Both the position numbers and the translations under genes were made by a program. Positions 1,246-58,837 of a stretch of DNA of 64,000 nucleotides are shown piece after piece; position 1 is the first letter of the stretch; each line of letters starts with the position of its first letter. The notes beneath the pieces are model-generated. The model had not been told where the DNA came from. It did not search any database and saw only the letters and a list, made by a program, of their open reading frames with translations. The stretch covers positions 160,001-224,000 of the forward strand of contig CAWAGQ010000008.1 in NCBI GenBank assembly GCA_963781585.1, in the 5' to 3' direction. This DNA comes from an uncultured Gemmatimonadaceae bacterium (GTDB lineage Bacteria > Gemmatimonadota > Gemmatimonadetes > Gemmatimonadales > Gemmatimonadaceae).

Positions 1246-1541
1246 GAGTCCTCCTAACGAGTAGTGGGGTGCGACGTAGCGGAACGGGCTGTCCCATTCC
1301 GGTGGTGTACCCTCCCGGCACGGACGCGGGTCCGAGGCCGGTGAGGGCAAAGAGAGGATGTATGCGCGGTTGAAAAGTCATGGGCGAACGGTTCGACCCA
1401 TTCACGATAATTCCAATCAGTCGCATGGAGAGCGCCGGGGGGGGAGGGCGCGCACCATCACAACCATCGGACGGACTCGGCTGGGGCGAAACGACGCACC
1501 CCTCCTTCGGCACCGAAACCTGCTGCCGAAGACTGTGCAAT

Positions 1542-4500
1542 CTATCGCAAAATGTCCACCAGCTGACGCTCGGCCGCCGCCAGCGCTGCCCGCACCTGGC
1601 CCACCTGCGCCCGCTGGGTACTGGTCGGAGGATACAGGCTGCCTTGCTGCTCACCACTCCCGTTGAAGGCGTTGGCAATGCCGCCGAGCCGCCCCGCGGC
1701 GCCGCCGCGTCCACCGGCCACTTCGCGCGCGACACTCGTTAGGCGCTGGAGCATCGAGTCGGCGGCGGCCCGCTCAGCGCTCCCCTCGGCCGCCGCGTCG
1801 CGGCGCGCTGCCGCGTCGCGGGTCGCGGTCGCCACCCGCCGGCTGAACGCCTGCAGCCGCTGCTGCAGCGCGGCAACATCCATCAGGAATGTCTCCCGTT
1901 CCTTGTACTGCTGCAGCGTGAGCGGCAGCAGCGGATCGGGCCCGACCCGCACCGATGTGCGCGCCTGCGCTCCTTCGGCCGTCACCGTGACGGTGTACGT
2001 CCCCGGCGAAACGAACGGTCCGCGGGGACCGATGTCGTGCGGCAGCGCCGCGCGCTGCTCTGCTGCCAGACGTGCTGCTTCCGGATCGACCGCCCCGCGC
2101 CCGCCACCGCCCCCGCCCCCACCACCCCCACGTCCACCCCGGCCACCTCGACCACCACGTCCTCCTCCCACCTCGATATCGGCACCAGCCGCTCCACCCG
2201 TCTCTTCTGCCGCAACGAATCCACCGCTGAATCCCGCCGCAGCCGGCGGCTCATGACGCAGATCCCAGTTCACCCGGAGGAGCGTTCCCCCCACCCCCGG
2301 ACCGGTCAGCGTGCGCACCGACTGGCCATTGGCGTCGCTGATTGCTACCGAAACCGACTTCGCCGGCTCCTTGAGTACGTAGGTGATCAGCGCTCCCTCG
2401 GCCGGATTCTCGGCAGCGTACTCGCCCTGCCCCCAGTTGGAGTAGTCCGCCCAGTACTGCATGAGCGTGGCGGCACGCACCGGAAACAGGTGCACCCGTT
2501 CCGCGGCGACTGACGGGGTCCACGCCGCGAGCGGACTCGCGTCATCGAGGATCCAGATGCTTCGCCCGTGCGTCCCCAGGATCAGGTCCTTGGTGCGTGG
2601 ATGCACCAGGATGTCATCGTAGCGCGTGGTGGGCAGGTTGGCCGCGAGCTTCGACCACGACCGCGCCGTGTCGGTCGACAGGTACAGGCCGAACTCCGTG
2701 CCGGCGAACACCACCCGCGGCTGGCCCGGGTATTCGCGAACCGAACGTACCGACTGCGCCTCGGGCAGCCCCGCAACGACTTTCTTCCAGGTGCGCCCGA
2801 AGTCGGTGGTGCGGAAGATGTACGGTGCGAAGTCGCCCGACCGATGCCCATCGAACGACGCGTACGCCACGCCGCGACCGGCCGACGAACCCGCCACGCG
2901 GCTCAGGCTCGTCCCGTCAGGCACACCGCTCACGTTGTGCGAGACCTCGGTCCAGGTCGCTCCGCCGTCGCGCGACACCTGCACGTTGCCGTCATCGGTG
3001 CCCACCCACACGATCTGCCCATCCAGCGGAGACTCGGCGATCGTCGTGATCTCGCTGAACGACGATTCCCCGTCGTTCTTCGACAGCATCGCCTCGCGAC
3101 CGGACACCCCCATGATGCTGAGCGTATCGCGATTCACGCGCCGCGTAAGGTCCTTCGTTGGCGTCCAGCTGGAACCGTGGTCGTGTGAGATGAACAACCG
3201 GTTGCCACCCGCATACACCACGCCTTTGGTGTGGCGTGAGGCGAGGATCGGCGCCGCCCAGTCGAATCGATAGGCCGAGTCTCCGATCGCCGGCGTCGGC
3301 TTGATGTCGAGACGATCGCCGGTCTCGATGTCGACGCGCTGGAGATTCTGCTCGTCGCTGTTGCTGTACACCCACCGCGGCATGAACGGATCGGGCTGCT
3401 GATAGACGCCGTCGCTGAATCCGATCTGCTTCCAATCGGTGTTCACGATGCCGAGCCAGTGCCGGGTGGCGCTGGGTCCCATCCACGAGTGGTTGTCCTG
3501 CATGCCGCCGTACACCCAGTATGGATCCCGGTCGTCGGCGCCGATCGCGTAGAACTGGCCGATCGGAATGTTGTTCAGGCGGATGAAGCTGTTGGCGGCA
3601 TCCCACGACTCGAACAGTCCACCATCGCCTCCGAGATAGAGATGCTGCGGGTTCGTCGGATCGATCCACAGCGCGTGGTGATCGGTCTTGAGCCCCACGT
3701 CGTAGGTGGGCTGGGTCGGCGAATTCCGGAACGTGCGGCCGCCATCGTCGCTGATCTGGACGCCATTACCGAGGATGTAGACGCGCGCATCGTTGGTTGG
3801 GTCGATGTAGATCGCGCTGTAGTACATCGGCCGGGGATTGACCCGGCTCACGCGTGTCCAGCTCTCACCTCCGTTGTCGGTGCGATACGTGCCCGTCTCG
3901 GTGGCGTGCTCGATGGTGGCGAGGATGTAGTTGCTGTTGGTCGCCGACATCGCGAGGCCGATGCGACCCAGGGCACCCGCCGGAATCCCGTTGGTGAGAC
4001 GGTGCCAGGTGGTGCCCCCGTCGGTGGTCTTGTAGATCCCGCTTCCCGGTCCGCCGCCGTTGAATCCCCACGGCGTGCGCAACCTTTGATATGTGGCAGC
4101 GACGAGCGAGTTGGGATTGTTGGGGTCCATCACCAGGTCGGTCACCCCGGTGAGCGTGTCGACGAACAGGGATTTCGTCCACGTGCGTCCGCCGTCGGTG
4201 GTCTTGAAGACACCGCGTTCCGCACTCGGCTTCCAGAGATTCCCGAGCGCCGCGACGTACGCGACGTTGGGATCGGATGGGTGGAGCCGGATCCGCCCGA
4301 TCGCGCGGGTCTGTTCCAGGCCGACATGCGTCCAGGTAGCGCCGCCGTCGGTGGAGCGGTAGACGCCATCACCCCACGACGAGCTCTGTCGATTGTTCTG
4401 CTCGCCCGTTCCGACCCAGACGACGTTCGGATCGTGAGCAAAGATCGCCACGACTCCGAACGTGGCCGTTCCCTCATGATCGAAGACGGGGGTCCAGGTG

Positions 4501-4730
4501 GTTGCCTTGTTGGTCGACTTCCACAGTCCGCCTGACGCCGCGGCGATGTAGACGGTCGATGGGTCCCTCGGGAGCGCTTCGATGTCGTGGATGCGCCCGC
4601 CGAGCGCCGCGGGTCCAATGGATCGGAAGTGAAGGGAGTCGAAAGGCGATTGCGCGCCGACCGGGCGAGTGCCGGCCAGGCAGACACTCAGCGCGAGTGT
4701 CGAGCGGAGGCGAAAGGTGGCAGGACTCAT
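1542..4730 (-). CDS. Secreted BNR/Asp-box (sortilin/VPS10-like) beta-propeller protein, putative glycosyl hydrolase
   Basis: Signal peptide (MSPATFRLRSTLALSVCLA), FRSIGPAALGGRIHDI, and many S/T-x-D-G-G-x-T-W Asp boxes. Start taken at ATG 4730 because the upstream ORF extension is only the heptamer repeat. Confidence 0.85.
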   Translation of the reverse strand: MSPATFRLRSTLALSVCLAGTRPVGAQSPFDSLHFRSIGPAALGGRIHDIEALPRDPSTVYIAAASGGLWKSTNKATTWTPVFDHEGTATFGVVAIFAHDPNVVWVGTGEQNNRQSSSWGDGVYRSTDGGATWTHVGLEQTRAIGRIRLHPSDPNVAYVAALGNLWKPSAERGVFKTTDGGRTWTKSLFVDTLTGVTDLVMDPNNPNSLVAATYQRLRTPWGFNGGGPGSGIYKTTDGGTTWHRLTNGIPAGALGRIGLAMSATNSNYILATIEHATETGTYRTDNGGESWTRVSRVNPRPMYYSAIYIDPTNDARVYILGNGVQISDDGGRTFRNSPTQPTYDVGLKTDHHALWIDPTNPQHLYLGGDGGLFESWDAANSFIRLNNIPIGQFYAIGADDRDPYWVYGGMQDNHSWMGPSATRHWLGIVNTDWKQIGFSDGVYQQPDPFMPRWVYSNSDEQNLQRVDIETGDRLDIKPTPAIGDSAYRFDWAAPILASRHTKGVVYAGGNRLFISHDHGSSWTPTKDLTRRVNRDTLSIMGVSGREAMLSKNDGESSFSEITTIAESPLDGQIVWVGTDDGNVQVSRDGGATWTEVSHNVSGVPDGTSLSRVAGSSAGRGVAYASFDGHRSGDFAPYIFRTTDFGRTWKKVVAGLPEAQSVRSVREYPGQPRVVFAGTEFGLYLSTDTARSWSKLAANLPTTRYDDILVHPRTKDLILGTHGRSIWILDDASPLAAWTPSVAAERVHLFPVRAATLMQYWADYSNWGQGEYAAENPAEGALITYVLKEPAKSVSVAISDANGQSVRTLTGPGVGGTLLRVNWDLRHEPPAAAGFSGGFVAAEETGGAAGADIEVGGGRGGRGGRGGRGGGGGGGGGGRGAVDPEAARLAAEQRAALPHDIGPRGPFVSPGTYTVTVTAEGAQARTSVRVGPDPLLPLTLQQYKERETFLMDVAALQQRLQAFSRRVATATRDAAARRDAAAEGSAERAAADSMLQRLTSVAREVAGGRGGAAGRLGGIANAFNGSGEQQGSLYPPTSTQRAQVGQVRAALAAAERQLVDILR

Positions 4731-4823
4731 CTGTGCGAGTGGAGAAGGAGGGGTGGGGTCCTTGACGCTCGACGACGTGTCGGGGGGAGGCGGGGGCGAT
4801 AGTGCCGGAGATAGCACGAAAAG

Positions 4824-4909
4824 AGGCCGGAGGCCATAGGGCATGGGCCATAGGCCGAAAAGGCCAAAGGCCAAAGGCCAAAGGCCAAAGGCCAAAGGCC
4901 AAAGGCCAA
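4824..4909. repeat. Heptamer tandem repeat (AGGCCAA)7 with degenerate flanking units
   Basis: Seven perfect units at 4861-4909 abutting the nhaA stop codon; degenerate aggccat/agggcat/gggccat units to the left. Confidence 0.9.
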
Positions 4910-6259
4910 TCAAGGTGCGATCGTCGAAGCCGCGCGCCTCACCAGCCACCATCCGACCACGCCGGCGATGGACGAGGCCACAATGACGCCCGCCTTGGCG
5001 GCATCGAGCATCCGGCCCTCGCCAAAGGCAAGGTCGGCCACGAACAGCGACATGGTGAATCCGATGCCGCCCAGCCAGGCCGCGCCGTGCAGCATCGACC
5101 AGCTCACCCGCTCGGGCAGACGGGCCAGACCGGTGCGCAGCGCCAGCCAGCTGACGGTCAGGATGCCAAGCGGCTTGCCCACCACCAGGCCCAGTCCCGC
5201 GCCTAACGTGACCTGGCTGGTGACAAACTCGCCCGCCCCGGTCAGGGCCACACCGGCGTTAGCGACCGCGAACAGCGGCATGATTCCGTACGACACCACG
5301 CCGTGCAGCGCGTGCTCGAGGCGCAGCAGCGACCCCTGCACGCTCTCGCTGGCGATGCGCAGCGCGTGGATGGCTTCCTGTTGGCCCTTGCTGCTGAGCA
5401 CCAGCAGATCTCCCGTCTCGGAGCGATCGAACCCGTCCATCAGGCGCCGCACTCGCGTCGAGAATTCCGCCGCGTTGATCTCGGTGCGGGTGGGGATGGT
5501 GAGGGCGAGCAGCACACCGGCGATCGTGGCGTGCACGCCCGAGGACAGCAGGGCCAGCCAGAGCCCGACTCCCACCAGCAGGTAGGGGCCCAGCTGGCGC
5601 ACGCCGAAGACATTGAGCAGCACGAGGACGGCCAGCGCCAAGGCGGCAGCGGCGAGCGACAGCCAGTGGATGGCGGCGGTGTAGAAGATCGCGATCACCA
5701 GGACGGCGCCCATGTCGTCCACGATCGCCAGCGCGGTGAGGAAGACCTTGAGGCCCACCGGCACCCGCGCGCCGAGGATGGCCAGGACGCCGAGGGCAAA
5801 GGCGATGTCAGTGGCCATCGGGATGCCCCACCCCGCCGCGCCTGCGCCCCGCGCGTTCACCAGCGCGTACACCAGTGCCGGAACCACCATCCCGCCTAAC
5901 GCGGCGGCGATCGGCAGGGCCGCCTGGCGCGGAGAAGACAGCTCGCCGACCAGGAGTTCGCGCTTGATCTCGAGCCCCATCAGCAGGAAGAAGAGGGACA
6001 TCAGGCCGTCGTTGATCCAGTGTCGGAGGGTGCCGGTGAACGGGTCCCGTACCAGTCCGATCGCGAGCTCAGCATGCCAGACGCGGAAGTAGCTGTCGCG
6101 CCACGGCGAGTTCGCCCAGGCCAGGGCCAGCGCGGTACACACGAGCAGCAGGACGCCGCTGGTGGCACCGACCCGCGTGAATTCCTGGAACGGACGCAGG
6201 GCGTTCACCAGCAGACGCGCCGGGATGCGGGCCGCGGACCTTTTGCTCGGCTCGGTCAT
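4910..6259 (-). CDS. nhaA: Na+/H+ antiporter NhaA
   Basis: WINDGLM, GLEIKRE, GWGIPMATDIAFALG, LAIVDD and GIGFTMSLF motifs. Confidence 0.95.
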   Translation of the reverse strand: MTEPSKRSAARIPARLLVNALRPFQEFTRVGATSGVLLLVCTALALAWANSPWRDSYFRVWHAELAIGLVRDPFTGTLRHWINDGLMSLFFLLMGLEIKRELLVGELSSPRQAALPIAAALGGMVVPALVYALVNARGAGAAGWGIPMATDIAFALGVLAILGARVPVGLKVFLTALAIVDDMGAVLVIAIFYTAAIHWLSLAAAALALAVLVLLNVFGVRQLGPYLLVGVGLWLALLSSGVHATIAGVLLALTIPTRTEINAAEFSTRVRRLMDGFDRSETGDLLVLSSKGQQEAIHALRIASESVQGSLLRLEHALHGVVSYGIMPLFAVANAGVALTGAGEFVTSQVTLGAGLGLVVGKPLGILTVSWLALRTGLARLPERVSWSMLHGAAWLGGIGFTMSLFVADLAFGEGRMLDAAKAGVIVASSIAGVVGWWLVRRAASTIAP

Positions 6260-6279
6260 TCCGGCAACCTATCGCGCCA

Positions 6280-6355
6280 GCGCCCGAAATTGGCGCCCGA
6301 AATTGGGGTCAGACTCGAGTTACCGCACAATTCGAGTCTGACCCCAATTTCGGGC
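6280..6355. repeat. REP-like palindromic element (24-bp perfect inverted repeat)
   Basis: gcccgaaattggggtcagactcga (6295-6318) and its reverse complement (6332-6355), overlapped by a 13-bp tandem duplication gcgcccgaaattg at 6280 and 6293. Confidence 0.8.
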
Positions 6356-6415
6356 CAGTTTCGCCGGCTCTCGCTCTCGCCGGCTGATCGAACGTCACTG
6401 TGCCGGGTGCCGGCG

Positions 6416-6952
6416 CTAGTGCCTGTCCGGCGCTCCCTTGGACGACTTCGCGCTCGATGCCGCCTGACGATTGGCGGTCAGGAAGTTGAGGTCGAAGACG
6501 TCTCCCTGATACATGGCCTTCTCGCTCGAGGGGGTGCCACCGAACCACCGGATCAACGCCACCTCGAACTCCCGCGACGGATGGTCGTGGGGCAGCTTGG
6601 GCATCTCGCGCAGACCACTGCGGGAAAGGGTAGGGAGCAGCACGATGTCATCCTTGGCATCGATGCGGGCCCTCCCCACGGGCACCAGCACGTCCCACGC
6701 CACGGTCACGTCGGGGCCAACGGCTTGGGGATCGATCTTCACGTCGAGGTAGCGCAGTTCGTGCGCCGAGCAGTCCATGAACAGGCGGTCGACTTTCCCG
6801 ATCTCCGTCCCGTCACTGGACCGGACCCTCCAACCACGCACGTCAGGCGCGTCGTGCAGCTGGACGTCCTTCATTTCGCGGAGGGGGGCCACATTGGATG
6901 ACGAAGATGATTCGGATCCCGGGGTGTTCGGCGTTCGCGCGTTCTGGGTCAT
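6416..6952 (-). CDS. PRC-barrel domain protein
   Basis: PDVRGWRVRSSDGTEIGKVDRLFMD...LRYLDV...VLVPVG; AAGGAG upstream of ATG 6952. Confidence 0.85.
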   Translation of the reverse strand: MTQNARTPNTPGSESSSSSNVAPLREMKDVQLHDAPDVRGWRVRSSDGTEIGKVDRLFMDCSAHELRYLDVKIDPQAVGPDVTVAWDVLVPVGRARIDAKDDIVLLPTLSRSGLREMPKLPHDHPSREFEVALIRWFGGTPSSEKAMYQGDVFDLNFLTANRQAASSAKSSKGAPDRH

Positions 6953-7502
6953 CGCGGATCTCCTTTTGGCAAGGGAATAGGCCAAAGGCCATAGGCCTTA
7001 CGTGCGATGGCGCGTTCCGCGGCCAGCTGACCGACGGCAACCGTCGTCGACGCGCTACCTCGCGGATTCCACCACGCGCGCACTCAAGACAGGGTGCGCG
7101 AAGCCAAGGGGTGCTGCCGCGGACCTTCTCTGCCTTCGTCTGGAGACATCAGCGCACTGCTGCAGAGAAGCGACCGCGATTCGCGGGGAGCGCTGCGACC
7201 AGGGCTCGGACCATCGCACGAACGGGGTCTACTCGCACAGTACCGCGACGGGACATCATTGTCAACACATTCACCAACAATGAGTTAGCGTACCATTGAC
7301 GCCGCCGGCACGCGAGCGGATGAGCTGGGTGTGAATATGCGGCCGCGAGTGTGCCCGCCTGGCTGGCTCGCGCCATGTTCGCGACGCAGCTCGGCGGCGA
7401 CCTGGTCCAATCGCATCGATCTTGATGATCCGTGATCCCACCGATAACGTCGCCTTGCACGTTGCACCCCGGATCCCGTTGAATTCTGCCGGAGGCCTCT
7501 GC

Positions 7503-8963
7503 ATGCGACGATCCTCTCTCGCTGCGCGGCTGCTTGCCGCGACGGTGACCTCACTCGCGCCTCCCGTCCTGCTCGCCCAGAGCATGTCGGTGGACGTCGA
7601 GAGCGGGACGTGGGCGCTCACCAACGCGCGGATCGAGACTGTCACCAAGGGCACGATTGCGAAGGGCACCATCGTCATTCGGAATGGTGTGATCGACGCG
7701 GTCGGTGACAATATCACGCCACCGCCCGATGCCCGGGTGATGGATCTCTCCGGCAAGACTGTGTATCCGGGTTTCATCGATCTCACGTCGACGATGGGGC
7801 TGACGGCGGAGACGCCGGCTGGTGGACGGGGTGGCCGAGGGGGGGGCGGGTTGAACCTCCCTCCCGGTGTGACCCCCGAGATGGTGGCGGCCTTTCTCGG
7901 TCAGGCACCAACGCAGCAGGAGGGCCCGCGGAATGTGGGACTCGAGCCAGGGCGCGAGGTGGCCACCGAGATCAATCCGTCGGCGAACGATGTGCGCGCG
8001 GCGCGTGACCAGGGAGTGACTGCGGTGCTGGTGGCGCCGGGGCGCGGACTGTTCCGCGGCCGGTCGGCACTGGTCCCGATGCGGGACGACACCGCGTCGC
8101 ACTGGATCGTGAAGACCCCGGTGTCGCTGAGCGTGGGTTATCAGGGCGTACCGGGCCAGTACCCGGGGACGCTGCTGGGTGTGATCGCCTATCAACGGCA
8201 GTCTCTCTACGACGCCCGCCGGCACGCCATGGTCCTGGACCGGTACAAGGCGAACCCGCGCGGCATGCCGAGGGAGGAGTACAATCCCGATCTCGACGCG
8301 CTGGTGCCGGTGGTGCGTGGCGAGCTGCCGATGTTCATCGCGGCCAGCAACGAGAATGAGATCCGCCGCGCGCTGGCCCTGGCGAAGGAGTTCGACATCA
8401 AGGCGACGGTGGTGGGCGCCACCGAGGGATTCGAGGCGATCGATGCGCTCAAGTCGGCGCGGCCGCCGGTGGTCTCGGTGAACTTTCCCGATCCGCAGCA
8501 GGTGACCGGATGGGACTATGCTTTCGCCACGCGCCCCGGGTTTGCGATGGACAGCGCGGCGCGGGTGGCGGCGGTCCGGAAGGACGTGGAAGGAAACGCC
8601 GCGGCGCTGAACTCGGCCGGCATCAGATTCGCGCTCGCCTCGGGCGGCCTCGCGCCTAACGCATTCATGACCAATGTGAGGAAGGCGATCGCGGCGGGGC
8701 TGCCCCGCCAGACGGCGCTCGAAGCGCTCACCATCCGTCCGGCGGAGATCGCGGGGGTGGACCAGCAGCTCGGGAGCATCGAGCCCGGCAAGATCGCTGA
8801 CCTGGTCATCACCGAGGGAGACGCATTGACCGACGGCGGGCACGTTCGCACCGTCTTCGTCGACGGGATCGACTACACCGTGGTACCGGCGCCGGCTGCT
8901 GGCGGTCGGGGCGGCCGCGCCGGCGGCAATTCCATACCTCCGAATCCACAGGAGAGACCATGA
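7503..8963 (+). CDS. Secreted amidohydrolase-family protein lacking metal ligands (triad subunit 1)
   Basis: ALTNARI...VYPGFID (no HxH) and GSIEPGKIADLV; signal peptide; GGAGG RBS. Confidence 0.8.
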   Translation: MRRSSLAARLLAATVTSLAPPVLLAQSMSVDVESGTWALTNARIETVTKGTIAKGTIVIRNGVIDAVGDNITPPPDARVMDLSGKTVYPGFIDLTSTMGLTAETPAGGRGGRGGGGLNLPPGVTPEMVAAFLGQAPTQQEGPRNVGLEPGREVATEINPSANDVRAARDQGVTAVLVAPGRGLFRGRSALVPMRDDTASHWIVKTPVSLSVGYQGVPGQYPGTLLGVIAYQRQSLYDARRHAMVLDRYKANPRGMPREEYNPDLDALVPVVRGELPMFIAASNENEIRRALALAKEFDIKATVVGATEGFEAIDALKSARPPVVSVNFPDPQQVTGWDYAFATRPGFAMDSAARVAAVRKDVEGNAAALNSAGIRFALASGGLAPNAFMTNVRKAIAAGLPRQTALEALTIRPAEIAGVDQQLGSIEPGKIADLVITEGDALTDGGHVRTVFVDGIDYTVVPAPAAGGRGGRAGGNSIPPNPQERP

Positions 8964-10402
8964 CGCCGATGAGCATGTCTGACGGCCGGGGCGGCGTCCG
9001 TTGGGGATCGCGCCCGATATCCTGTTTCACCTCCCGCGCGGTGGCGACGGCGTTCCTGTTCGGCGCGTCGGTCGGATGGGCGCAGGATGCGCCGCAGGCG
9101 GCCGGCGGCTTCGATCCCCTGACGCTGCCGACGCCGGCGGCCGGGACCCTGGTGGCGATCACCCACGCCAACATCATGACCGCGAGCCATGGCAACATTA
9201 TGAACGGCACGATCCTGATCCGGAACGGCAAGATCGCCGAGGTCGGGACCAACGTGCAGGTGCCGGCGGGCGCGAAGATCATCGACGCCACCAACAAGTG
9301 GGTCACGCCGGGTATCATCGACGAGCATTCGCACACCGGCCCGGAATCGATCAACGAGGGCACGCAATCGATCACCGCCGAAGTCCGCATCGGCGACGTG
9401 CTCAAGGAGGATGGGATTTCCTTCTACCGCCAGCTCGCCGGCGGCACCACGACCATCAACGTGCTCCACGGGTCGGCCAACACCATCGGCGGGCAGAACC
9501 AGGTGATCAAGCTGCGGTTCGGCCTCCCGGTGGACAGCATGCGGCTGGCCGGCGCACCCCCAGGCATCAAGTTCGCGTTAGGCGAAAACGTGCGGCAGAC
9601 CACCCGCGCCGACAATACCCGGTACCCGCGCTCTCGCATGGGACAGGAAGACGTGCTTCGCGAAGCCTTCACCCGGGCCCGCGAATACCAGCACGAGTGG
9701 CAGGCCTACGACAAGGCCAAAGCTGATTACGACAAGACGAAGAAGGGAGCGGCACCCATCCCGCCGCACAAGGACCTGGAGCTCGACGCCCTGGTGGAGG
9801 TGCTCGAAGGGAAGCGGCTGGTCCACGCGCACTCGTACCGCGCCGACGAGATCCTGATGCTGCTGCGGGTGGCGAAGGATTTCGGGTTCCGGGTCGCGTC
9901 GCTGCAGCACGTGCTGGAGGGCTACAAGATCGCCGACGAGATCGCGGCAGCCGGGACCGGCGCCAGCACGTTCGCCGACATGTGGGGCTACAAGGCCGAG
10001 GCCTGGGACGCCATTCCCTACAACGCGGCCCTGATGGCCGAGCGCGGCGTAAACGTGACCGTCAACTCCGACAGCGATGAGCGGGCCCGCCGGCTGAATC
10101 AGGAGGCAGCCAAGGCGATGCGGTTCGGCGGCGCGTCGGAGGAAACGGCGCTCCGCATGATCACCCTCAACGCCGCGATGCAGCTCGGCATCGACAAGAT
10201 GGTCGGGTCTATCGACGTGGGGAAAGACGCCGACATCGCGATCTTCAGCGCGCATCCGTTCTCGCCGATGGCGCGGGTGGACATGACGCTGATCGATGGC
10301 CGGGTCTTCTTCGACCGCAACACGGCACCGACACTCGAGTGGCTGATGCAGCAGATGAAGGCGAAGGGCAAGATCGCGTCCGATCTGGAGGGTGGGCGAT
10401 GA
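8960..10402 (+). CDS. Secreted amidohydrolase with intact metal-binding motifs (triad subunit 2)
   Basis: PGIIDEHSH, KFALGEN, HAHSYRADE, QHVLEGY, NSDS, GSIDVGKDAD; ATGA overlap with the upstream gene. Confidence 0.88.
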   Translation: MTPMSMSDGRGGVRWGSRPISCFTSRAVATAFLFGASVGWAQDAPQAAGGFDPLTLPTPAAGTLVAITHANIMTASHGNIMNGTILIRNGKIAEVGTNVQVPAGAKIIDATNKWVTPGIIDEHSHTGPESINEGTQSITAEVRIGDVLKEDGISFYRQLAGGTTTINVLHGSANTIGGQNQVIKLRFGLPVDSMRLAGAPPGIKFALGENVRQTTRADNTRYPRSRMGQEDVLREAFTRAREYQHEWQAYDKAKADYDKTKKGAAPIPPHKDLELDALVEVLEGKRLVHAHSYRADEILMLLRVAKDFGFRVASLQHVLEGYKIADEIAAAGTGASTFADMWGYKAEAWDAIPYNAALMAERGVNVTVNSDSDERARRLNQEAAKAMRFGGASEETALRMITLNAAMQLGIDKMVGSIDVGKDADIAIFSAHPFSPMARVDMTLIDGRVFFDRNTAPTLEWLMQQMKAKGKIASDLEGGR

Positions 10403-11772: not shown

Positions 11773-11819
11773 CCGCAGAGGTGGCGCTCGAAGCGCCGAA
11801 CAAGGGTTGTTTTCGCACT

Positions 11820-11860
11820 CGAAGGCCCACCGGTTCGCACGGCGAATCGGAGGGCCTTCG
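11820..11860 (+). terminator. Hairpin after the amidohydrolase operon, probable terminator
   Basis: cgaaggccc-a-ccggttcgc-acg-gcgaatcgg-a-gggccttcg. Confidence 0.55.
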
Positions 11861-12042
11861 TGTGTATCCGCGGCTGACGCCCGCTCCTCGTGGATCGCAG
11901 AGAACCCTGCCAACCGCGCCACCGGACCCCCCTTCCCTGAGACGTGTCCTCCGCCAACTTCCCTGAATCCCGGAGCCGCACGAGGCTGCTGTTGCCGCAG
12001 CCCGGTCGTCTTTCGCCATCCCGAATTACCGTGGAGCACGGA

Positions 12043-23204: not shown

Positions 23205-23221
23205 AGGCGGGAGGAGTCCAG

Positions 23222-50884: not shown

Positions 50885-51013
50885 GGGGCGCTGACCGCTG
50901 ATAGCTGCACTTCAGTAATGGCGGCCCGCCCAGTCGCGCGTTAGCGTCAAACGAAGAGGCGTGCCGCCCGCCGACCGGCCTCCACCGTTCTTGAACGATC
51001 ATCCCCTGCATCC

Positions 51014-51436
51014 ATGCGTCGCCCCCGCGGCTTCACTCTGATCGAGCTGCTGATCGTTCTCGCCGTCATGTCGATTCTGGCCGCGATCGCCTTCGGGTCG
51101 TATCGCAACGCCAAGGCGAAAGCGTACATGGCGACGATGGAGGCTGACCTCAACCGTCTGCGCACCGCGGAGGAGAGCTGGTTCATCGAGAACCACGCTT
51201 ATTCGATGAGCACCACCACGCTCGGCTTCACGCCGTCGGCGGGGGTCAACATCGTCCTGGCCAGTTCCAACCCGGCCATGGGGTACGCCGCCATCGCGAC
51301 GGTGCCCTCGTTCGGCGCCGGACAGTGCGGATTGTTCGTCGGCGAAGAAGCGGTGACCTCCGCGTCGGGTACGACCGTGTGCACTCAGGAGACCACCGGG
51401 TCGCAGGGCGTCGGTGCATCGGGGGCGAAGAAGTGA
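51014..51436 (+). CDS. Type IV pilin-like protein (prepilin N-methyl-Phe cleavage site)
   Basis: RPRG/FTLIELLIVLAVMSILAAIA. Confidence 0.9.
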   Translation: MRRPRGFTLIELLIVLAVMSILAAIAFGSYRNAKAKAYMATMEADLNRLRTAEESWFIENHAYSMSTTTLGFTPSAGVNIVLASSNPAMGYAAIATVPSFGAGQCGLFVGEEAVTSASGTTVCTQETTGSQGVGASGAKK

Positions 51437-51523
51437 GACCACGCCTCTCCTCGGCGATGGCCGCCGCCCGCCGTACCGCCGCTGCGCGGCCTTGCGACGC
51501 GCGGCCTCACGCATAGCGGGAAC

Positions 51524-51865
51524 ATGGGGAGACGCCGCTCCGCCGCTGGTCCGGTTTCCCGGATGCCGAATCCGCTCGACCCCCTCGACGGCACCCCTGA
51601 CAGTACGCTCGACCTCCACGGACTCGGCGCGACCGAGGCTGCCGCCGCCTTCGAGCAGTTCGTGTTGCGGGAGCTGCAGCGCCTGCCGGGCGCCCTCCTC
51701 CATGTCATAACGGGGAAGGGACGCAACTCTCCCAACGGCCCGGTGCTGCAACGCGTCATCCGGCGCACCATCCTCGCCGACCGCACTCGCCGCATCGTCG
51801 CATGGAGCCGCGACGATGACGAAGGCGGCTACCTGGTGCGCCTCAGCCGCGGCCGCTCACGGTGA
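51524..51865 (+). CDS. Smr/MutS2 C-terminal domain protein
   Basis: TLDLHG...LHVITGKGRNS..GPVL...GGYLVRL. Confidence 0.88.
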   Translation: MGRRRSAAGPVSRMPNPLDPLDGTPDSTLDLHGLGATEAAAAFEQFVLRELQRLPGALLHVITGKGRNSPNGPVLQRVIRRTILADRTRRIVAWSRDDDEGGYLVRLSRGRSR

Positions 51866-51925
51866 GGGAGGCTGGCTGTCAGCAGATCCGTCCGCGGGTG
51901 GTCGAAATCCGGATCGGTCACTGAC

Positions 51926-53683
51926 GTGACCACCAAGGTCCGCGGTCTCCACCGATCCGTGCACCGGGTGAGGCCGGCACGCGCGATCAGCACACTGGCG
52001 CGCCTGACGATCGTGGCCGCGGTGCTGGTGGGGAGCGCGTGCACGCAATCGCGGTCGGGGCCGGATCTCGTGCTCCATCACGCCGTGGTACGCACCATGG
52101 ACGCCCGCCAGCCCCTGGCCGAGGCGGTGGCGATTGCCGACGGGCGCATCACGTTCGTCGGCTCCGACAGCGACGCCTTGAAGCTGGTGTCACGCAACAC
52201 ACGGGTCATCGATGCGGGGGGTCGCCTGCTGCTCCCCGGATTCATCGACACCCACGTCCATCCGGTGCAAGGGGGGCTGAGGCTGGGCGAGTGCGATCTG
52301 CACGACATCATGACGCGCGACTCGCTGGTCCGCGCGATCGTGGAATGCGCCCACCGAAATCCCACCGCCGCCTGGGTGCGGGGCGGCGGATTCGAGCTCC
52401 CGCTCTTCCTCGATGGGAATCCCTCGCGCCTGCTGCTCGACTCGCTCGTCCCCGACCGGCCGGCGTTTCTCACCTCCACCGACGAGCACAACGCCTGGGC
52501 GAACTCGCGCGCGTTGGCGCTCTCCGGCGTCACGCGTGACACGAAGGATCCGCCTAACGGGCGCATCGAGCGCGACGCCGCCGGGAATCCGTCGGGCACG
52601 CTGCGCGAGGCGGCCCAGGGTCTGGTCGCGAGCCACCTGCCCGCCTACACCGACGCCGACGACGATGCGGCGCTCGCGCAGGCCTTGGCGCTGGCCGGTC
52701 GGTTCGGCATCACCACCTGGCATGAGGCCAATGCCGACGATGCGATCCTCCGCGCCTACCATCGCGCCGACTCGTCAGGCACCCTCACCGTGCGGACGGT
52801 CGTCGCCCTCCACGTCGATCCCGAGTTCGGCACCAGGCAGATACCCGGCCTCGACTCCCTCCGGCGCCGGTACAGCACGCCGCTCGTGCAGGTGACGGCG
52901 GCCAAGATCTTCGTCGATGGCGTCATCGAGGGACACACCGCCGCGCTGCTCCAGCCGTATCTCGACCGACCCGGGTTTCGCGGTCAGCTCAAGGTGTCCC
53001 CCCCTCTGCTGGACACGCTCGTGCACGCCCTCGACTCCGCGGGATTCAAGGTGCACGTGCACGCCATCGGCGACCGGGCCATTCGCGTCACGCTCGACGC
53101 ATTCGAGAAACAGCACGCCATCGACGGCGGCGCCGGACCGCGCCACATCATCGCGCATCTTCAGCTGTTCGACCCCGCCGACATTCCGCGGCTCGCTGCG
53201 CTGGGCGTGGCCGGGTCGTTTCAGCCGCTCTGGGCGTTTCGCGACACGTACATGCGTGATCTCACCGAGCCGCGTCTCGGACCACGCCGCTCGCGATGGC
53301 AGTATCCCATCGCCAGCGTCGTGCGGACCGGCGCGATCGTCGCCGCGGGGAGCGACTGGCCCGTCACGTCGATGGATCCGCTCCAGGCGATTCAGGTGGC
53401 GGTCACTCGGCAGCGCCCCACCGATTCGACCGACGCACCGTTCTTCCCCGAGGAGCGCGTGGACGTTGCCACGGCCGTCGGTATGTACACCAGCGCGGCG
53501 GCGATGGCGGTCGATCAGGACTCGCTCACCGGGACGATCACGGTGGGCAAGGCCGCTGACCTCATCGTGCTGTCGGAGAATGTCTTCACCGAGTCCGTGT
53601 ATCGCATCGCGCGGACACACGTGGTCCTGACGCTGATGGGTGGGCGCGAGGTGTTTCGGGATTCGGTGCAGGTCCGCCCCTGA
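51926..53683 (+). CDS. Amidohydrolase 3 family (YtcJ-like) lipoprotein (start uncertain)
   Basis: LLPGFIDTHVH, KIFVDGV, HVHAIGDRA, IAHLQL, AGSDWPV, GTITVGKAAD. Confidence 0.9.
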   Translation: MTTKVRGLHRSVHRVRPARAISTLARLTIVAAVLVGSACTQSRSGPDLVLHHAVVRTMDARQPLAEAVAIADGRITFVGSDSDALKLVSRNTRVIDAGGRLLLPGFIDTHVHPVQGGLRLGECDLHDIMTRDSLVRAIVECAHRNPTAAWVRGGGFELPLFLDGNPSRLLLDSLVPDRPAFLTSTDEHNAWANSRALALSGVTRDTKDPPNGRIERDAAGNPSGTLREAAQGLVASHLPAYTDADDDAALAQALALAGRFGITTWHEANADDAILRAYHRADSSGTLTVRTVVALHVDPEFGTRQIPGLDSLRRRYSTPLVQVTAAKIFVDGVIEGHTAALLQPYLDRPGFRGQLKVSPPLLDTLVHALDSAGFKVHVHAIGDRAIRVTLDAFEKQHAIDGGAGPRHIIAHLQLFDPADIPRLAALGVAGSFQPLWAFRDTYMRDLTEPRLGPRRSRWQYPIASVVRTGAIVAAGSDWPVTSMDPLQAIQVAVTRQRPTDSTDAPFFPEERVDVATAVGMYTSAAAMAVDQDSLTGTITVGKAADLIVLSENVFTESVYRIARTHVVLTLMGGREVFRDSVQVRP

Positions 53684-53793
53684 GTCGGAAGTGACCGGAC
53701 GACGCGGGCCCCGTCGTGCGGGTGTCGCCGCTCGGGCGTGTCTGTAGCATTGACGTTCAGCGGCGATTCGCACGCGCCAGCCGAGAGGGACAC

Positions 53794-55311
53794 ATGAGAA
53801 CACTTGCGTTGAGTCGAGTCGCGGCGGCACGAGGCAGCTCTATGTCACACGCGATCGTCGCTGCGGCCGTGCTGCTTGCCGCGGCGGCCAAGGCCTCGGG
53901 CGCCCAGCTCATTACCCCAAAGACGGTGCCCGTTCGTCAGGCGCAGCAGTTCGAGATCTTCCCGTCCGATCGCGCGGGCATGGCCGGCGTCTCGATCGCT
54001 CTGGACGACACGGTGCTCGATCCGTTCGTGAATCCCGCGAAGAGCGTTCGCGCCTCCGCAGGACTGATCCAGATCTCCCCGTTTGTCCATTCTGTCTCGC
54101 TCTCGGGGGGAGGGGGGCGCACCATCCCGCTCAGCGCCTTCGCATCATCTGGCGGGTGGTCGGGCGGGGGGCTGTTTTCGCTGCAGGAGCTGGACCGGCC
54201 CACGCAGAACGTCGGCGCCCCGCTGAGCGAGCAGCACGGGACCAACGAATACCTGGCCGGGACCGTGTCGCGCCGGGTTTCACGTGGACTCTCCGTCGGC
54301 CTCGGCGTCTACTGGGCCGACCTGAGCGCGGTCGACGGCGTCGACAAGCTGTACAGCGGGAGCGACAGCCTGCGCGAGGCGGGCCACCAGCTCGATCTTC
54401 GGTTCGGTCTGCTCAGACAGTGGGGCGTTGGACGTTCGTTCGAGCTGCTGGTGCTCCGAAACACCTATGACATGCGCCACGATGTGCACTACCCGGCTCT
54501 CTATCAGTACACGCCGTGCTGCCCGGGGCCGCCCCCGGAGATCTTCCCGGAGCACGAAGAGCACAACGCGGACCGTACCAATACGTGGGGCGTGCACACG
54601 GCGTACTCGCAGCCGGTGGGCGCTCATGGCTGGCGTGTGGGCTGGTTGGTCACCATGAACAAGCTCACCCATCCCCGCATCCCCAACTACACGCTGGTGA
54701 GCCTGCCCCGCGATCCGGGCTTCACCAACGCCTTCAATGCCGGCGCCGGGATCGCCCGCCTCTCCGGCGGAACCACGTTAGGCATCGATGTGGTGTTCGA
54801 GCCGATGTGGAGTCACACCTGGGCAACCGCCGCGCACGACACCATGACCGCGGTGGACGGTATCATTCACGCGGGCGAACGGACGGTCGACAATCACTTC
54901 CGCTTTTCGAATACGCTGCTGCGGGTGGGGTTCGGGCAGGACATCCCTCTTGCCCCCGATTCCGCGACCACGTTCGGTCTCCAGGCCGGGCTCGGCCTCT
55001 ACTCCATCAGGTACCGTCTGAACCAGCAGAACTACGTGTCGTACGTCTCGCGAACCCAGGATGAGAACTGGATCGAGTGGACGCCCACCCTCGGCGCGCG
55101 CGTCCGCAGCCGGAATGTCGAGGTGGCGTATACGTTCAGCCTGACCTGCGGCCCCGATTGTGGCCGGAATCGCGAGTCCGTGTTCTACCTGCCGCCCGGT
55201 CCGCTCGAAGGAGATGGTGGCGGCGTCATCGCCGTGCCGAATGCACCGCTCACCTTCGACGGCGGCCGCGCCACCACGCATCGGATCACCGTCTCGTTCC
55301 GGATGCGCTGA
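53794..55311 (+). CDS. Probable outer-membrane beta-barrel protein of unknown function
   Basis: Signal peptide; AGMAGVSIALDD..DPFVNPA (reminiscent of FadL/PorV N-termini); amphipathic strands; C-terminal ITVSFRMR. Confidence 0.65.
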   Translation: MRTLALSRVAAARGSSMSHAIVAAAVLLAAAAKASGAQLITPKTVPVRQAQQFEIFPSDRAGMAGVSIALDDTVLDPFVNPAKSVRASAGLIQISPFVHSVSLSGGGGRTIPLSAFASSGGWSGGGLFSLQELDRPTQNVGAPLSEQHGTNEYLAGTVSRRVSRGLSVGLGVYWADLSAVDGVDKLYSGSDSLREAGHQLDLRFGLLRQWGVGRSFELLVLRNTYDMRHDVHYPALYQYTPCCPGPPPEIFPEHEEHNADRTNTWGVHTAYSQPVGAHGWRVGWLVTMNKLTHPRIPNYTLVSLPRDPGFTNAFNAGAGIARLSGGTTLGIDVVFEPMWSHTWATAAHDTMTAVDGIIHAGERTVDNHFRFSNTLLRVGFGQDIPLAPDSATTFGLQAGLGLYSIRYRLNQQNYVSYVSRTQDENWIEWTPTLGARVRSRNVEVAYTFSLTCGPDCGRNRESVFYLPPGPLEGDGGGVIAVPNAPLTFDGGRATTHRITVSFRMR

Positions 55312-55404
55312 CGGGCGCAGGGGTGGCGAAGACCGGGCCGAAGCGAGCGACAATTCCTTCGCTGAAGCAAGACCTGGCCGCCTGACCAGGAGCGAGCGGA
55401 TCGG

Positions 55405-57546
55405 TTACCTCCCCGCTTTCCCTCCAATCGTCGCCTGGGTCTCGAGCCGGATCGGCAGCCGCCGCACGCGCGTTCCCGTCAGGCGGAAGATCGCGTTGGC
55501 CACCGCGGGAGCGATCTGCGGCACCCCGGGCTCGCCGGCTCCTCCGGGCTCTTCCTCGCTATCGACAAGGAAGATGTCGTACTCCGGCGCCTCGGTGATC
55601 CGCACCATCCGGTAGTCGTTGAAGTTCGCTTGCTTCACCCGTCCGTTCTCGATCGTGATCTCACCATACAGCGCCGCGGTGAGACCGCCGATGATTGCCC
55701 CCATCAGCTGCGCTTCGACGATTCCCGGGTGCATGACGCGGCCACAGTCGGCCACGCACCACACCTTGTGTACGCGCACGCGGTTGTTCTGTACCGAGAC
55801 CTCCGCGACTTCGGCGACGTACGAGCCATCCAGCTCGGCGATCGCCAGCCCGCGTGCCCGGCCGGCCGGCGCCGGGGTCTTCCATGCCGAGCGCTGCGCC
55901 GCCACCTCCAGCACGTGCTTCATCCGCGGTGCGCCCGACAGCAGTTCGAGCCGCACGTCGAGCGGGTCGCGATTGGCCGCATGGGCCAGCTCGTCCATGA
56001 AGCTCTCGATGAAGAACGCGTTCTGCGACGGACCCACCGACCGCCAGTAACCCACCGGCACCGCGATGTCTGGCTTGCTGTAATCGACGTGGAGGTTGGG
56101 AATGCCGTACGGCGTGTTCGAGATCGCGTCCACCGCGGGGCCGTCCACGCCGCCGCGTGCGCCGGAAATCGGCGGCGTGGCAACGCGTGCGCGCAGCGCC
56201 ACCACCTTCCCCTGACCGTCCACTCCGCCCTGGAACTCCACGTGGGCCGCCGGCCGGTACTGGTCGTGCTGCATGTCCTCCTCGCGTGTCCACAGCACCT
56301 GCACCGGTGCACCGATCTTCTTCGACGTCTCGACCGCGTCCTCGACGAAATCGGTCCGCGAGCGACGTCCCCATCCGCATCCCAGGTACTGCACGTGCAC
56401 CGTGACCTTGTCGATCGGCAGTCCGGTGATCTGCGCCGCCGCGCTCTGGCTGCCTTGCGGATTCTGTGTCGGCACCCAGATCTCGCACCGGTCGGCACGC
56501 ACATCGGCCGTGCAGTTCATCGGCTCCATGGTCGCATGGGCGAGATACGGCGCGAGGTAGGTAGCTTCGACACGGTGCGCTGCGCCCGACAGCGCCGAGT
56601 CGGCATTGCCTTCACTCCGCGCCTGCGCACCGGGCTGCTGGACGAGTTGCGCGAGATTGCTGAAGATGTCGTCGCTGTTCATCGCGAAGCCGCCGCTCTG
56701 CCACTGCACGCTCAGGGCGCGGGCGCCCTTGATGGCCGCCCAGGTGTTCTCGGCCACCACCGCCACACCCTGCGAGACCTGCACGACCTGCTTCACGCCG
56801 GGCACCGCGCGCGTCTTCGTGTCGTCGAACGACCGGACGGAATCGCCGAACACCGGCGGATGCACCACGGTGGCGAACAGCATGCCGGGAACGCGCGCGT
56901 CGATTCCGTAGGCGGCACGCCCGGAGACCTTCTCCTTCGTATCGACGAGTGGGATGCGCTTCCCAATGAGCTTGAAGTTCTTCGGATCCTTGAGCTGCGG
57001 CTGTGACGGCACCGCCATGGTCGACGCGGCGTCGGCGACCTCGCCGTATCCGACCGACCGCTTCGACGCGTCATGGAAGACACGGCCGTTTTCCGTGCGA
57101 CAATCGGACGCGTTCACACTCCACTTGGCGGCGGCGGCGGCGACCAGCATCGCCCGGGCGGTGGCACCCGCCTGACGAAGGCCCATCCACGCATTCCCGC
57201 GCACACTGGAGCTCCCGACCGTCATCATACGGCCGTATTTCCGTGGGTCCGCATCCGCCTGCAGGATGCGCACCCTGCTCCAGTCCGCGTCGAGCTCCTC
57301 GGCCACGATCATCGGCATCGCAGTCCGGACGCCCTGTCCCATATCGGAGCGCGCGGACCAGATCGTCACTGACCCGTCGGTATCGACCCGCACGAAGGCG
57401 TTAGGCTGAAGCGGCGCCGCGGTACGCCTACTGCGTTCCGGCCGTCGCGCCATATCGGGGAAATAGACGCCGAGGAACAGGCCGCCACCGGCGACCGCGC
57501 CCAGCCTGAGGAAATCGCGGCGGTCGAGCCTGGAGATCGTTGTCAT
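55405..57546 (-). CDS. iorB: Xanthine dehydrogenase family molybdopterin-binding subunit (isoquinoline 1-oxidoreductase beta-like), Tat substrate
   Basis: DRRDFLR Tat motif; RSDMGQG..IVAEEL; HATMEPMNC; WTREED; GYWRSV; GGAGEPG. Confidence 0.9.
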   Translation of the reverse strand: MTTISRLDRRDFLRLGAVAGGGLFLGVYFPDMARRPERSRRTAAPLQPNAFVRVDTDGSVTIWSARSDMGQGVRTAMPMIVAEELDADWSRVRILQADADPRKYGRMMTVGSSSVRGNAWMGLRQAGATARAMLVAAAAAKWSVNASDCRTENGRVFHDASKRSVGYGEVADAASTMAVPSQPQLKDPKNFKLIGKRIPLVDTKEKVSGRAAYGIDARVPGMLFATVVHPPVFGDSVRSFDDTKTRAVPGVKQVVQVSQGVAVVAENTWAAIKGARALSVQWQSGGFAMNSDDIFSNLAQLVQQPGAQARSEGNADSALSGAAHRVEATYLAPYLAHATMEPMNCTADVRADRCEIWVPTQNPQGSQSAAAQITGLPIDKVTVHVQYLGCGWGRRSRTDFVEDAVETSKKIGAPVQVLWTREEDMQHDQYRPAAHVEFQGGVDGQGKVVALRARVATPPISGARGGVDGPAVDAISNTPYGIPNLHVDYSKPDIAVPVGYWRSVGPSQNAFFIESFMDELAHAANRDPLDVRLELLSGAPRMKHVLEVAAQRSAWKTPAPAGRARGLAIAELDGSYVAEVAEVSVQNNRVRVHKVWCVADCGRVMHPGIVEAQLMGAIIGGLTAALYGEITIENGRVKQANFNDYRMVRITEAPEYDIFLVDSEEEPGGAGEPGVPQIAPAVANAIFRLTGTRVRRLPIRLETQATIGGKAGR

Positions 57547-57549
57547 CGC

Positions 57550-58008
57550 TTAGCCCTCCCGCACGGCACGGTGAATCGCGCGCCGGATCCGATCATAGGT
57601 ACCGCAGCGACAGATGTTGCCCGACATGGCACGATCGATGTCGGCATCGGTCGGACTCTTGTTCGCCGCCAGCAGCGCCGCGGCCGACATGATCTGTCCC
57701 GACTGGCAGTAGCCGCACTGCGAGACCTCCTCGGCGATCCAGGCCTTCTGGACCGCGTGCGTCACGTCGGACGACAGTCCTTCTATTGTAGTGATCGCGC
57801 GATCACCGACGTCGGACACCGGCGTGCGGCAGGAATGCACCGCCTTGCCGTCGAGGTGGACCGTGCAGGCGCCGCACTGTCCGATGCCGCAGCCGTACTT
57901 GGTGCCGGTGAGGCCGGCGGCGTCGCGGAGTACCCAGAGCAATGGCGTATCGGGCTCGACATTGAGCTGCTGGGAGCGCCCGTTGATGTGCAGGGTGATC
58001 GCTGCCAT
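57550..58008 (-). CDS. iorA: 2Fe-2S binding subunit (isoquinoline 1-oxidoreductase alpha-like)
   Basis: [32 protein letters not shown]. Confidence 0.93.
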
Positions 58009-58039
58009 GTGTCTCTCCCTTTGAGACGGGATCAGATCT

Positions 58040-58542
58040 CCACGCTACATCGAGAGCGGCGTGAGGTCCAGAGCTGGAGATATTCGCCCGCTTTTGGACG
58101 TACTCACCCAGCGCGTCTACGACACCGACGTACAGGACGGCTACGACGTCGGCCACCCGGCGCAGGCCGCTATGGATGCCATCGCCGACACCCTCGTCGC
58201 CGTGGTCCTGAGCGACGCGTCGCTTTTCGGCGAGACGCACTGCGGTCCCTACTCTGAGATTGTCTTCCAAGCCAGAACAGGGTACGCCGTTATGCAGGTG
58301 CCGCCGAGCGCATGTATCGCATCGCGATGAGTGGCGTGGAATACGCCGCCAGTATGGTTGGAGGCCTGGAGGATTTGCCCGACACCACGCAAGCGCTCCA
58401 TTACCTGCGCCTCATTGCCACCTCGGACGCGCAGGTTGCGCACTGGGCTGTGCAGGGTCTCGGCACCGAGATGGGCCCCAGAGGCCTGAGTGTCGCCCGA
58501 GAACTGTTCGACCAGGACCTCGTGCACGAGCGGAACGCCTAG
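58040..58542 (+). pseudogene. Possible frameshifted remnant of an unknown gene
   Basis: Protein-like stretches in successive frames (RPLLDVLTQRVYD..MDAIADTLVAVVL / YAGAAERMYRIAMSG..ALHYLRLIATS) with no intact ORF. Confidence 0.3.
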
Positions 58543-58837
58543 GTAGTGATGAATACCCTTGCTGAAACCCACGGGTGGAAGCGCCCGGGGCGCCCTTCGC
58601 TCCATCACACCGGATCGCGGTGAGGGTGGGCGCGCGTTCCGTGGCCAGCGGCGACGCGCGACGTCGTAGCTACGGAATGATCACCCCCTCCGCGAAGCCT
58701 AACGTGAGCAAGTGTTGCAACTCGGCACGGGACGCCACGTGCCGTGGAGAAGGGCGCGTGCCCGCCTGCACCTGGACCGGCGTTCGCTATCCACCGCGAT
58801 GACCGGGGTTCCCGGTCGACGCCCGCCCGCCAGCGCG

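Follow-up and report, generated by a model that had tools for sequence, protein, structure and literature searches.

What maintains a short DNA word that recurs on both strands of a bacterial chromosome, mostly inside genes and at the cost of the rarest leucine codon? The question is raised by CCTAACG in a 64,000-nucleotide stretch of an uncultured Gemmatimonadaceae bacterium (assembly GCA_963781585.1, contig CAWAGQ010000008.1, positions 160,001 to 224,000; hereafter the window, which is contig C8, 160001-224000, of the genome under study, G000). The three best matches of its RecA, from Gemmatimonadaceae or Gemmatimonadetes, are 87-89% identical. The initial annotation had listed 26 copies, 15 as CCTAACG and 11 as CGTTAGG, and all coordinates and strands proved correct; 100 shuffles of the window gave a mean of 2.66 heptamers and a maximum of 7. 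Its zero-order expectation of about 7 also held (7.2), as did its count of two CCTAAC hexamers without the final G (32438 and 15228), whereas the GC content is 67.1% and not about 69%. It overlooked the eighth base, and it did not recognise that the word equals the integron attC core box or that it is scattered over genomes of more than one phylum, as described below. The full word is the octamer GCCTAACG/CGTTAGGC, which accounts for 20 of the 26 window copies; in the whole genome, 1,442 of 1,706 CCTAACG are preceded by G, spread evenly over 17 contigs, with a strand split of 718/724 and a mean copy spacing of 3.3 kb. It is therefore a short, non-palindromic word with more than 1,000 copies on both strands. 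Ranked by maximal-order Markov z-score, CCTAACG leads all 7-mers, and at orders 2 and 3 only the overlapping GCCTAAC exceeds it; flanking preferences are weak (-6, -1 and +9 to +13), and GCCTATCG is not enriched. Other enriched words of this genome are TTTGGCCT/AGGCCAAAG, AAGGAATCA and GAGAATC.

Regarding the coding context, 20 of the 26 window copies lie inside called genes, as the annotation had held for most of them, in the frames xCG TTA GGy (Leu-Gly, 11 copies), CCT AAC Gxx (Pro-Asn, 7) and xxC CTA ACG (2). With the gene calls made for this analysis (4,405 genes, 82% coding), genes hold 1,288 copies versus 110 after within-gene synonymous shuffling, an 11.6-fold enrichment, and the main frames genome-wide are xCG TTA GGx (874) and CCT AAC G (308). 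The suspicion that the word imposes a rare codon was right: TTA is 0.8% of Leu codons, and 874 of 1,269 TTA codons are held by the word. TTA makes up 37.9% of Leu in CG-Leu-GGC versus 0.2% in other contexts, CCT makes up 53.5% of Pro in G-Pro-AACG versus about 5% elsewhere, and 51 of 326 TAA and 81 of 1,340 TAG stops fall inside the word. The enrichment over the synonymous shuffle and the TTA and CCT context contrast rule out a codon-pair artefact; the next NNTAANN heptamer reaches only 250 copies. Neither outcome named by the annotation as a refutation was thus observed. Copy density is 0.10 per kb in genes with low GC at third codon positions and 0.49 per kb in those where it is high.

As for polarity, the GC-skew minimum puts the replication origin at C8:334.6 kb, next to a dnaA-like gene; the origin region (C8:280000-360000) has lower GC (0.62-0.63) and is word-poor, with a 24.5-kb word-free stretch across this gene. 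On contigs C4, C5 and C8, with gene strand allowed for, the replichore odds ratio of the word was 1.36 (p 0.18) and the median of 1,755 7-mers was 1.24, while the FtsK-orienting polar sequence (KOPS) gave 4.0 overall and 15 on C4. The annotation's argument against a strictly polar Chi or KOPS role is thus borne out; an apparent 60% leading-strand bias on C4 disappears once gene strand is allowed for.

The assembly contains about 630 kb duplicated at about 88% identity (contig pairs C5/C8, C2/C6 and C11/C17), and contaminating DNA of a sister species is the likeliest source of the duplicate contigs. The sister contigs align over 620 kb and agree at 264 of 323 site-observations (82%; shared sites are counted from both sides), which puts the word second among 3,032 8-mers; an average 8-mer reaches 45%, and other TTA/TAA 8-mers reach 30%. 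Of the 21 window heptamers that can be aligned, 17 are kept. Differing sites mostly carry one or two substitutions, flanks are gapped at 16 of 323, and flanks are unique, which rules out an insertion scar or repeat family. Four-fold-site divergence is flat (∼0.25) around the word, ruling out a lowered mutation rate near sites. Farther away (genomes were classed as rich or poor by copy count, with dispersal checked in the sampled ones), occupancy at amino-acid-compatible orthologous positions is shared within the genus (6/6 versus 0/18) and independent of that in the rich genome G009 (16/24 versus 33/54, p 0.80), with 3/15 versus 4/19 for G156; in poor genomes, none of 36 orthologous site-alignments shows the word, and the amino acids are retained at 14 of them. 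Conservation at orthologous positions is therefore above background between sister contigs, shared in the genus and independent across genera.

Copies also repel each other. Pairs closer than 100 bp occur at 0.16 of expectation and the ratio reaches 1 near 1 kb; none of 150 control 7-mers was similarly repelled, their lowest ratio being 0.87 under 500 bp. The words ACCTAACG, GCCTGACG and GCCTAACA are scarce near the main word while GCCGAACG and GCC[CG]AGCG are not, so that the first three, as variants, act as substitutes; GCCTGACG, so repelled, is 4-fold commoner than in poor relatives. Moreover, each copy sits in a two-sided GC halo: four-fold-site GC is 0.90 beside a copy and 0.855 farther off, with a within-gene excess of +0.02, and no halo beyond the site itself occurs at control words or at 1,941 unoccupied compatible sites. 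The fitted decay lengths of repulsion (443±86 bp) and halo (390±42 bp) agree. The G-minus-C skew is mirror-symmetric about the asymmetric word: at distances of 60-450 bp it lies between -0.02 and -0.04 3' of the word and between +0.01 and +0.025 5' of it. It is flipped in sign (±0.08) at 10-30 bp, and zero beyond 1 kb. The halo recurs in G009 (GC from 0.78 to 0.72 in 421 kb; far skew only faint) and in G231 (0.94 to 0.86-0.89 in 237 kb; far skew present), and it is weaker in the smaller samples of G202, G236 and G156+G005, which agree within larger errors. Near a site the GC odds rise only ∼1.5-fold, too little for a 6-fold depletion of close pairs, so that redundancy between copies is needed. 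The word thus has strong site-level maintenance, graded variants, turnover by point substitution, a symmetric footprint of ∼0.4 kb, and redundancy at that scale.

Among the explanations offered by the annotation, an uptake or recombination tag fits best, whereas a methylation motif is weakened by the results on four methylase families and a nucleoid protein site leaves the halo and the phage copies unexplained. GCCTAACG is accordingly read here, tentatively and with a little less than even confidence, as a putative uptake-sequence-like tag that biases recombination toward incoming DNA that carries it. A putative reader protein would recognise GCCTAACG on incoming (transforming) DNA, and uptake or sparing, followed by recombination into the chromosome, would then be more frequent for pieces with the word than for those lacking it. 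The halo may reflect GC-biased heteroduplex repair where short tracts of recombination surround the word; a tract would need no more than one copy, hence the repulsion; and the bias toward the donor (molecular drive) could write the word into any tolerant codon context, even the rarest Leu codon. The specificity of the reader might derive from the commonest attC core box, which would favour cassette-array DNA; this is the weakest step. Since a word that is gained, and not erased, must favour the donor, its gain points to incoming DNA. Neisserial DNA uptake sequences (DUS) are described as similarly conserved and linked to conversion-tract length (PMC2397512), and bacterial GC content is reported to track recombination (PMC4450053).

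The distribution of the word is patchy. Among 30 relatives, the copies number 6,360 in G009, 915 in G001, 605 in G005, 516 in G015, 460 in G014, 345 in G030, 194 in G013 and 173 in G016, with 65 or fewer in the remaining 22. An even sample of 220 further genomes of the phylum contains at least 150 copies, and up to 3,896, in 12 of 151 genomes of the order and in 0 of 69 of other orders; all five genomes of genus g68 are rich on this threshold, and density varies ∼10-fold among rich genomes. On a quick tree of a core Eco57I-type methylase (frameshifted G018 left out) the rich genomes are scattered, with 7 changes for 8 rows. Outside the phylum, 0 of 151 sampled Planctomycetota are rich (maximum 77 copies), and 1 of 201 sampled Acidobacteriota is, G294. 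This genome has 299 strand-balanced, dispersed copies, which stand in reading frames as xCG TTA GGC and CCT AAC G; GCCTAAC is its top 7-mer (74 versus 5.7 expected in 400 kb), and its proteins are ∼45% identical to those of G000. One poor genome (G008) in the phylum tallies and one row (G262) of the Acidobacteriota tally carry no conclusion. The lineage-specific chromosomal signal proposed by the annotation therefore stands in being lineage-restricted, and falls short in that the word is scattered over genera and present in one Acidobacteriota genome. The latter genome (L263-L282) also has a second enriched word family, ACTCAGTA, TGCTGAGT and TAGCGGGT, probably intergenic repeats.

A known functional site has the same sequence. 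The core boxes of integron attC sites are R'' (RYYYAAC) and R' (GTTRRRY); in the attC arrays of G021 and G019 (Gemmatimonadota) and G235 (Acidobacteriota), the R'' box together with the base that follows it spells the word. Clusters listed from the poor genomes examined form arrays on one strand, ∼550 bp apart, with the word as the R'' box of attC hairpins. The dispersed copies differ from attC in standing in reading frames without a partner box, L boxes or a hairpin, and in excluding the attC variant GTTAGAC. This variant forms 3 of ∼18 R' boxes in L001 and 3-4 of ∼11 in L002, yet the dispersed set includes only 14 GTCTAACG, and TTA is 0.1% in CG-Leu-GAC versus 37.9% in CG-Leu-GGC; the word thus matches the commonest attC core, but its reading is stricter than that of attC by IntI. 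The attC site has an AAC cleavage triplet and R and L boxes, and integrases recruit cassettes from transforming single-stranded DNA, as given in PMC12614218. The genome under study has one full intI and a few attC-like sites: a search of both strands for attC hairpins gave 31 candidate rows, in which most sites appear twice, and only a few are near intI or cassette-like. Rfam had no match in two arrays.

Could an integron integrase, or a derivative of it, itself convert genomic near-matches to the attC core via aborted exchanges, with repair leaving the halo? This is improbable. The box identity in the three arrays speaks for it, as do the top rank of the plain R-box heptamer GCCTAAC in G294 and the presence of IntI in 10 of 13 rich genomes, that of G294 being sister to the IntI of rich G014. 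However, IntI is equally common in poor genomes (26/38, p 0.73) and has no diagnostic residue, by which it was rejected as the reader; on the IntI tree, richness takes 6 changes for 10 rows, three of them from one genome, and 25 of 500 shuffles are equally low. A reader stricter than IntI is also needed, and the genomic IntI target GWT reported in bioRxiv 2022.09.11.507474 fits neither GCCTGACG nor the non-enriched GCCTATCG. Finally, no hairpin or flank complementarity surrounds the dispersed copies, and conversion alone leaves the redundancy of neighbouring copies unexplained. Three tyrosine-recombinase gene copies occur in G000 (C7:172173-174746, C7:182755-185345 and C13:309021-309851), and the C7 copies are each followed by a transposase-like gene and flanked by one R''-like and one R'-like box, which looks like an insertion into attC. 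Strongly one-sided counts in G402, G302 and G274 (6/168, 9/73 and 58/6) suggest large cassette arrays.

Viral contigs carry the word too. Three scans for paired copies gave at least 360 loci; among the matches listed, many rich loci are attC arrays, strongly one-sided counts, as at L301 and L595, suggest large cassette arrays, and copies are dispersed, at 0.6-2 per kb, in at least 14 loci from at least 13 contigs of 60-73% GC. Terminase, portal and capsid genes mark one of the latter, L327, as a tailed phage, with 32 GCCTAAC in 20.4 kb versus 0.93 after shuffling and no short-gap deficit (7 versus 6.5); L554 and L484, two of the three loci scanned, have no structural phage gene matches. Lopsided viral strand counts are not read as polarity because they follow gene strand (L554: 23 to 2, with genes over 16.2 versus 1.3 kb).

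Along with the lack of AddAB and the symmetry of the skew, these copies sustain an unlikely but live alternative, in which the word would be a non-polar substitute for Chi. A cytoplasmic helicase-nuclease or nicking protein would read the word on any DNA in the cell; degradation would stop, or repair start, at the word, a few hundred bases would be resected and resynthesised on both sides, and phages would mimic self. The word resembles Chi, read by RecBCD or AddAB, in being a conserved, non-palindromic octamer every few kb that is phage-enriched in cases and linked to a local, putatively recombinational footprint. It differs in being non-polar, with a two-sided footprint, and in a host where AddAB/RecBCD was not found. 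An AddAB/RecB-type pair was not found in G000, G009, G231 or G202, the four rich genomes tested, and classical Chi is excluded on this ground; the nuclease domain of this type occurs in 33 of 151 genomes of the order versus 67 of 69 in other orders. The mirror-symmetric skew would fit site-centred processing, and recombinase-lacking phages are reported to over-represent Chi (PMC3784561). Nevertheless, loss of AddAB does not split rich from poor (domain in 2/12 versus 31/139), and the TM0106 nuclease-helicase, promising in 31 genomes, failed in 221 (2/12 rich versus 20/139 poor). In general, breaks at a word would erase copies rather than create them; the repulsion is over by ∼1 kb despite the 3.3 kb mean spacing; and the viral loci were pre-selected for two copies, two of the three scanned being without structural phage genes. 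In the window itself, a TM0106-family RecB-like nuclease and helicase is split over two frames (36806-40377), probably by an assembly indel, since relatives have one frame of ∼1,150-1,200 aa and the sister contig breaks elsewhere.

That the word is a mark like HIP1 (GCGATCGC), modified by a methyltransferase and spread through methyl-directed repair or uptake, is very improbable. HIP1 is likewise a hyper-abundant in-gene octamer, dispersed and raising transformation in a way that depends on methylation according to bioRxiv 2024.09.10.611283, and a single-copy Eco57I-type adenine methylase of ∼1,075 aa (G000:C2:157766-160996, L015) is conserved in 29 of 31 genomes searched. The tree of this methylase, though, follows host families (the 7 changes for 8 rows given above), the rich genomes are scattered on it and no residue separates them, so it was rejected as the reader. 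C5, N6/N4 and Dam-type methylases are not common to rich genomes, and G231 has a single Eco57I-family match, the conserved enzyme; the Gemmatirosa methylome has three other motifs (PMC3974934), and divergence does not drop near sites. The word also differs from HIP1 in being non-palindromic, in having no cognate methylase among the four families, and in being patchy rather than phylum-wide. A C5 cytosine methylase fused to a Vsr endonuclease is encoded at G000:C7:477213-478676 (L018).

Sites for a nucleoid-organising protein, selected one by one for chromosome architecture, would suit the graded variants, the weak flank preferences and the lack of polarity. This explanation is hardly credible given that positions are independent between genera, that density spans ∼10-fold among rich genomes, and that neither phage copies nor a 0.4-kb halo are expected from it; furthermore, matS, parS and SlmA sites are regional palindromes present in few copies.

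Returning to the uptake-sequence-like tag, genes were located with protein motifs. ComEC and DprA, both searched in rich genomes, were each present in 5/5, and G000 has ComEA and type IV pilus operons, and at least 15 pilin-like genes, one of them type IV pilin-like in the window (51014-51436). Several results weigh against the tag. ComEA and pilins are also present in poor genomes, and the machinery therefore does not explain the patchiness; ComEA was rejected as the reader for the same reason, ComP had no match over the PF16732 cut-off in any of five rich genomes, and the presence of a FimT-like minor pilin does not follow the word. No candidate tested separates rich from poor (IntI, ComP, four methylase families, AddAB, TM0106 and one minor pilin). 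The reversal of skew sign within ∼60 bp is not accounted for, and the flat divergence around the word speaks against the tag as well as against a repair-rate reading. DNA unique to one sister contig has no clear depletion of the word, and viral contigs match or exceed the host density, which is simpler under a reader acting inside the cell. Inverted pairs under 100 bp are 3 among 1,689 gaps, so that there are no terminator hairpins, and the commonest frame uses the rare TTA, unlike the preferred-codon frames of DUS and of uptake signal sequences (USS) in PMC2817400. Among further candidates, genes beside intI failed to track the word, clusters of sites failed as pointers to a reader gene, and a small GIY-YIG protein was not found in G000 by a rough motif search.

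The word has several features in common with DUS (Neisseriaceae, read by ComP) and USS (Pasteurellaceae): all are short, non-palindromic words in thousands of copies on both strands and in genes, conserved above their surroundings, evenly spaced at short range and without replichore bias, in hosts with competence genes. The word differs in sequence and phylum, in the lack of ComP and terminator pairs, in its use of the rarest codon, in its scatter over genera, families and a second phylum, in its identity with an attC core box, and in that its role in uptake is putative. It would work like an uptake sequence yet stands outside DUS/USS as defined, given the absence of ComP and terminator pairs and the rare codons. 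The NTS/Ssn of Neisseria are also repeated words, and NTS affects transformation, but NTS are hairpins, rarely in genes (PMC11893778). The window copies are collected in Table 1.

Table 1. Copies and variants of the word in the window; the last column gives the state in the sister-species contig.
Feature	Positions	Strand	Context and frame	Sister contig
Heptamer (TCCTAACG)	1253..1259	+	intergenic	kept
Octamer	1737..1744	-	gene 1542-4730(-), CGC CTA ACG	kept
Octamer	5201..5208	+	nhaA (-), ACG TTA GGC	kept
Octamer	5894..5901	+	nhaA (-), GCG TTA GGC	kept
Octamer	8654..8661	+	amidohydrolase gene, CCT AAC GCA	kept
Octamer	9576..9583	-	GCG TTA GGC	kept
Octamer	10956..10963	+	CCT AAC GCG	kept
Heptamer (CCCTAACG)	12862..12868	+	CCT AAC GAG	kept
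Octamer	16119..16126	-	immediately past stop of 15651-16118	unaligned
ACCTAACG variant	16399..16406	-	GCG TTA GGT	changed
Heptamer (TCCTAACG)	17247..17253	+	CCT AAC GAT	changed
Octamer	17638..17645	-	amidase gene, TCG TTA GGC	kept
Octamer	27470..27477	+	gene 26450-28153(-), CCG TTA GGC	kept
Octamer	28263..28270	-	intergenic	unaligned
Octamer	30455..30462	+	intergenic	unaligned
Octamer	31011..31018	+	gene 30507-31127(-), GCG TTA GGC	kept
Heptamer (CCCTAACG)	35936..35942	+	ACC CTA ACG	changed
Octamer	37110..37117	-	TM0106-family nuclease gene, GCG TTA GGC	kept
Octamer	40778..40785	+	intergenic	unaligned
ACCTAACG variant	44859..44866	+	CCT AAC GAT	heptamer kept (sister: GCCTAACG)
Octamer	45677..45684	-	TCG TTA GGC	heptamer kept
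Octamer	48978..48985	-	GCG TTA GGC	kept
Octamer	52552..52559	+	CCT AAC GGG	changed
Octamer	54776..54783	-	ACG TTA GGC	kept
Octamer	57399..57406	-	gene 55405-57546(-), CCT AAC GCC	kept
Octamer	58697..58704	+	intergenic	unaligned
GCCTGACG, weaker variant	239..61588		28 dispersed copies, some background	

Literature searches (the word itself, and integron, uptake and Gemmatimonad contexts; most subscription journals lay outside their coverage) found no published description of the word, and it was not found in six supplements of PMC4752239; it is apparently undescribed in print, a variant of the hyper-abundant recombination and uptake words. Since it matches a known functional site, has been gained or lost repeatedly, and leaves a measurable footprint, its origin and mechanism are testable by comparing rich and poor genomes.

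In conclusion, a mobile or repeatedly evolved reader of the attC core might enable soil bacteria from two or more phyla to select environmental DNA that bears cassettes. As a by-product, the cassette core might have become a self-tag throughout the genome, one that alters codons, governs local recombination and GC and is imitated by phages; as a whole this remains a speculative proposal, more doubtful than not. Sequence-specific uptake tags are described for two bacterial families in PMC1939737, and a cassette-core reader, if true, would add to them a third, independent system of uptake sequences, and the first whose origin can be identified. The halo would be one of the rare signs, at base resolution, of a bacterial GC bias linked to recombination, and, if the integron link holds, natural transformation would be tied to cassette traffic in soil communities.

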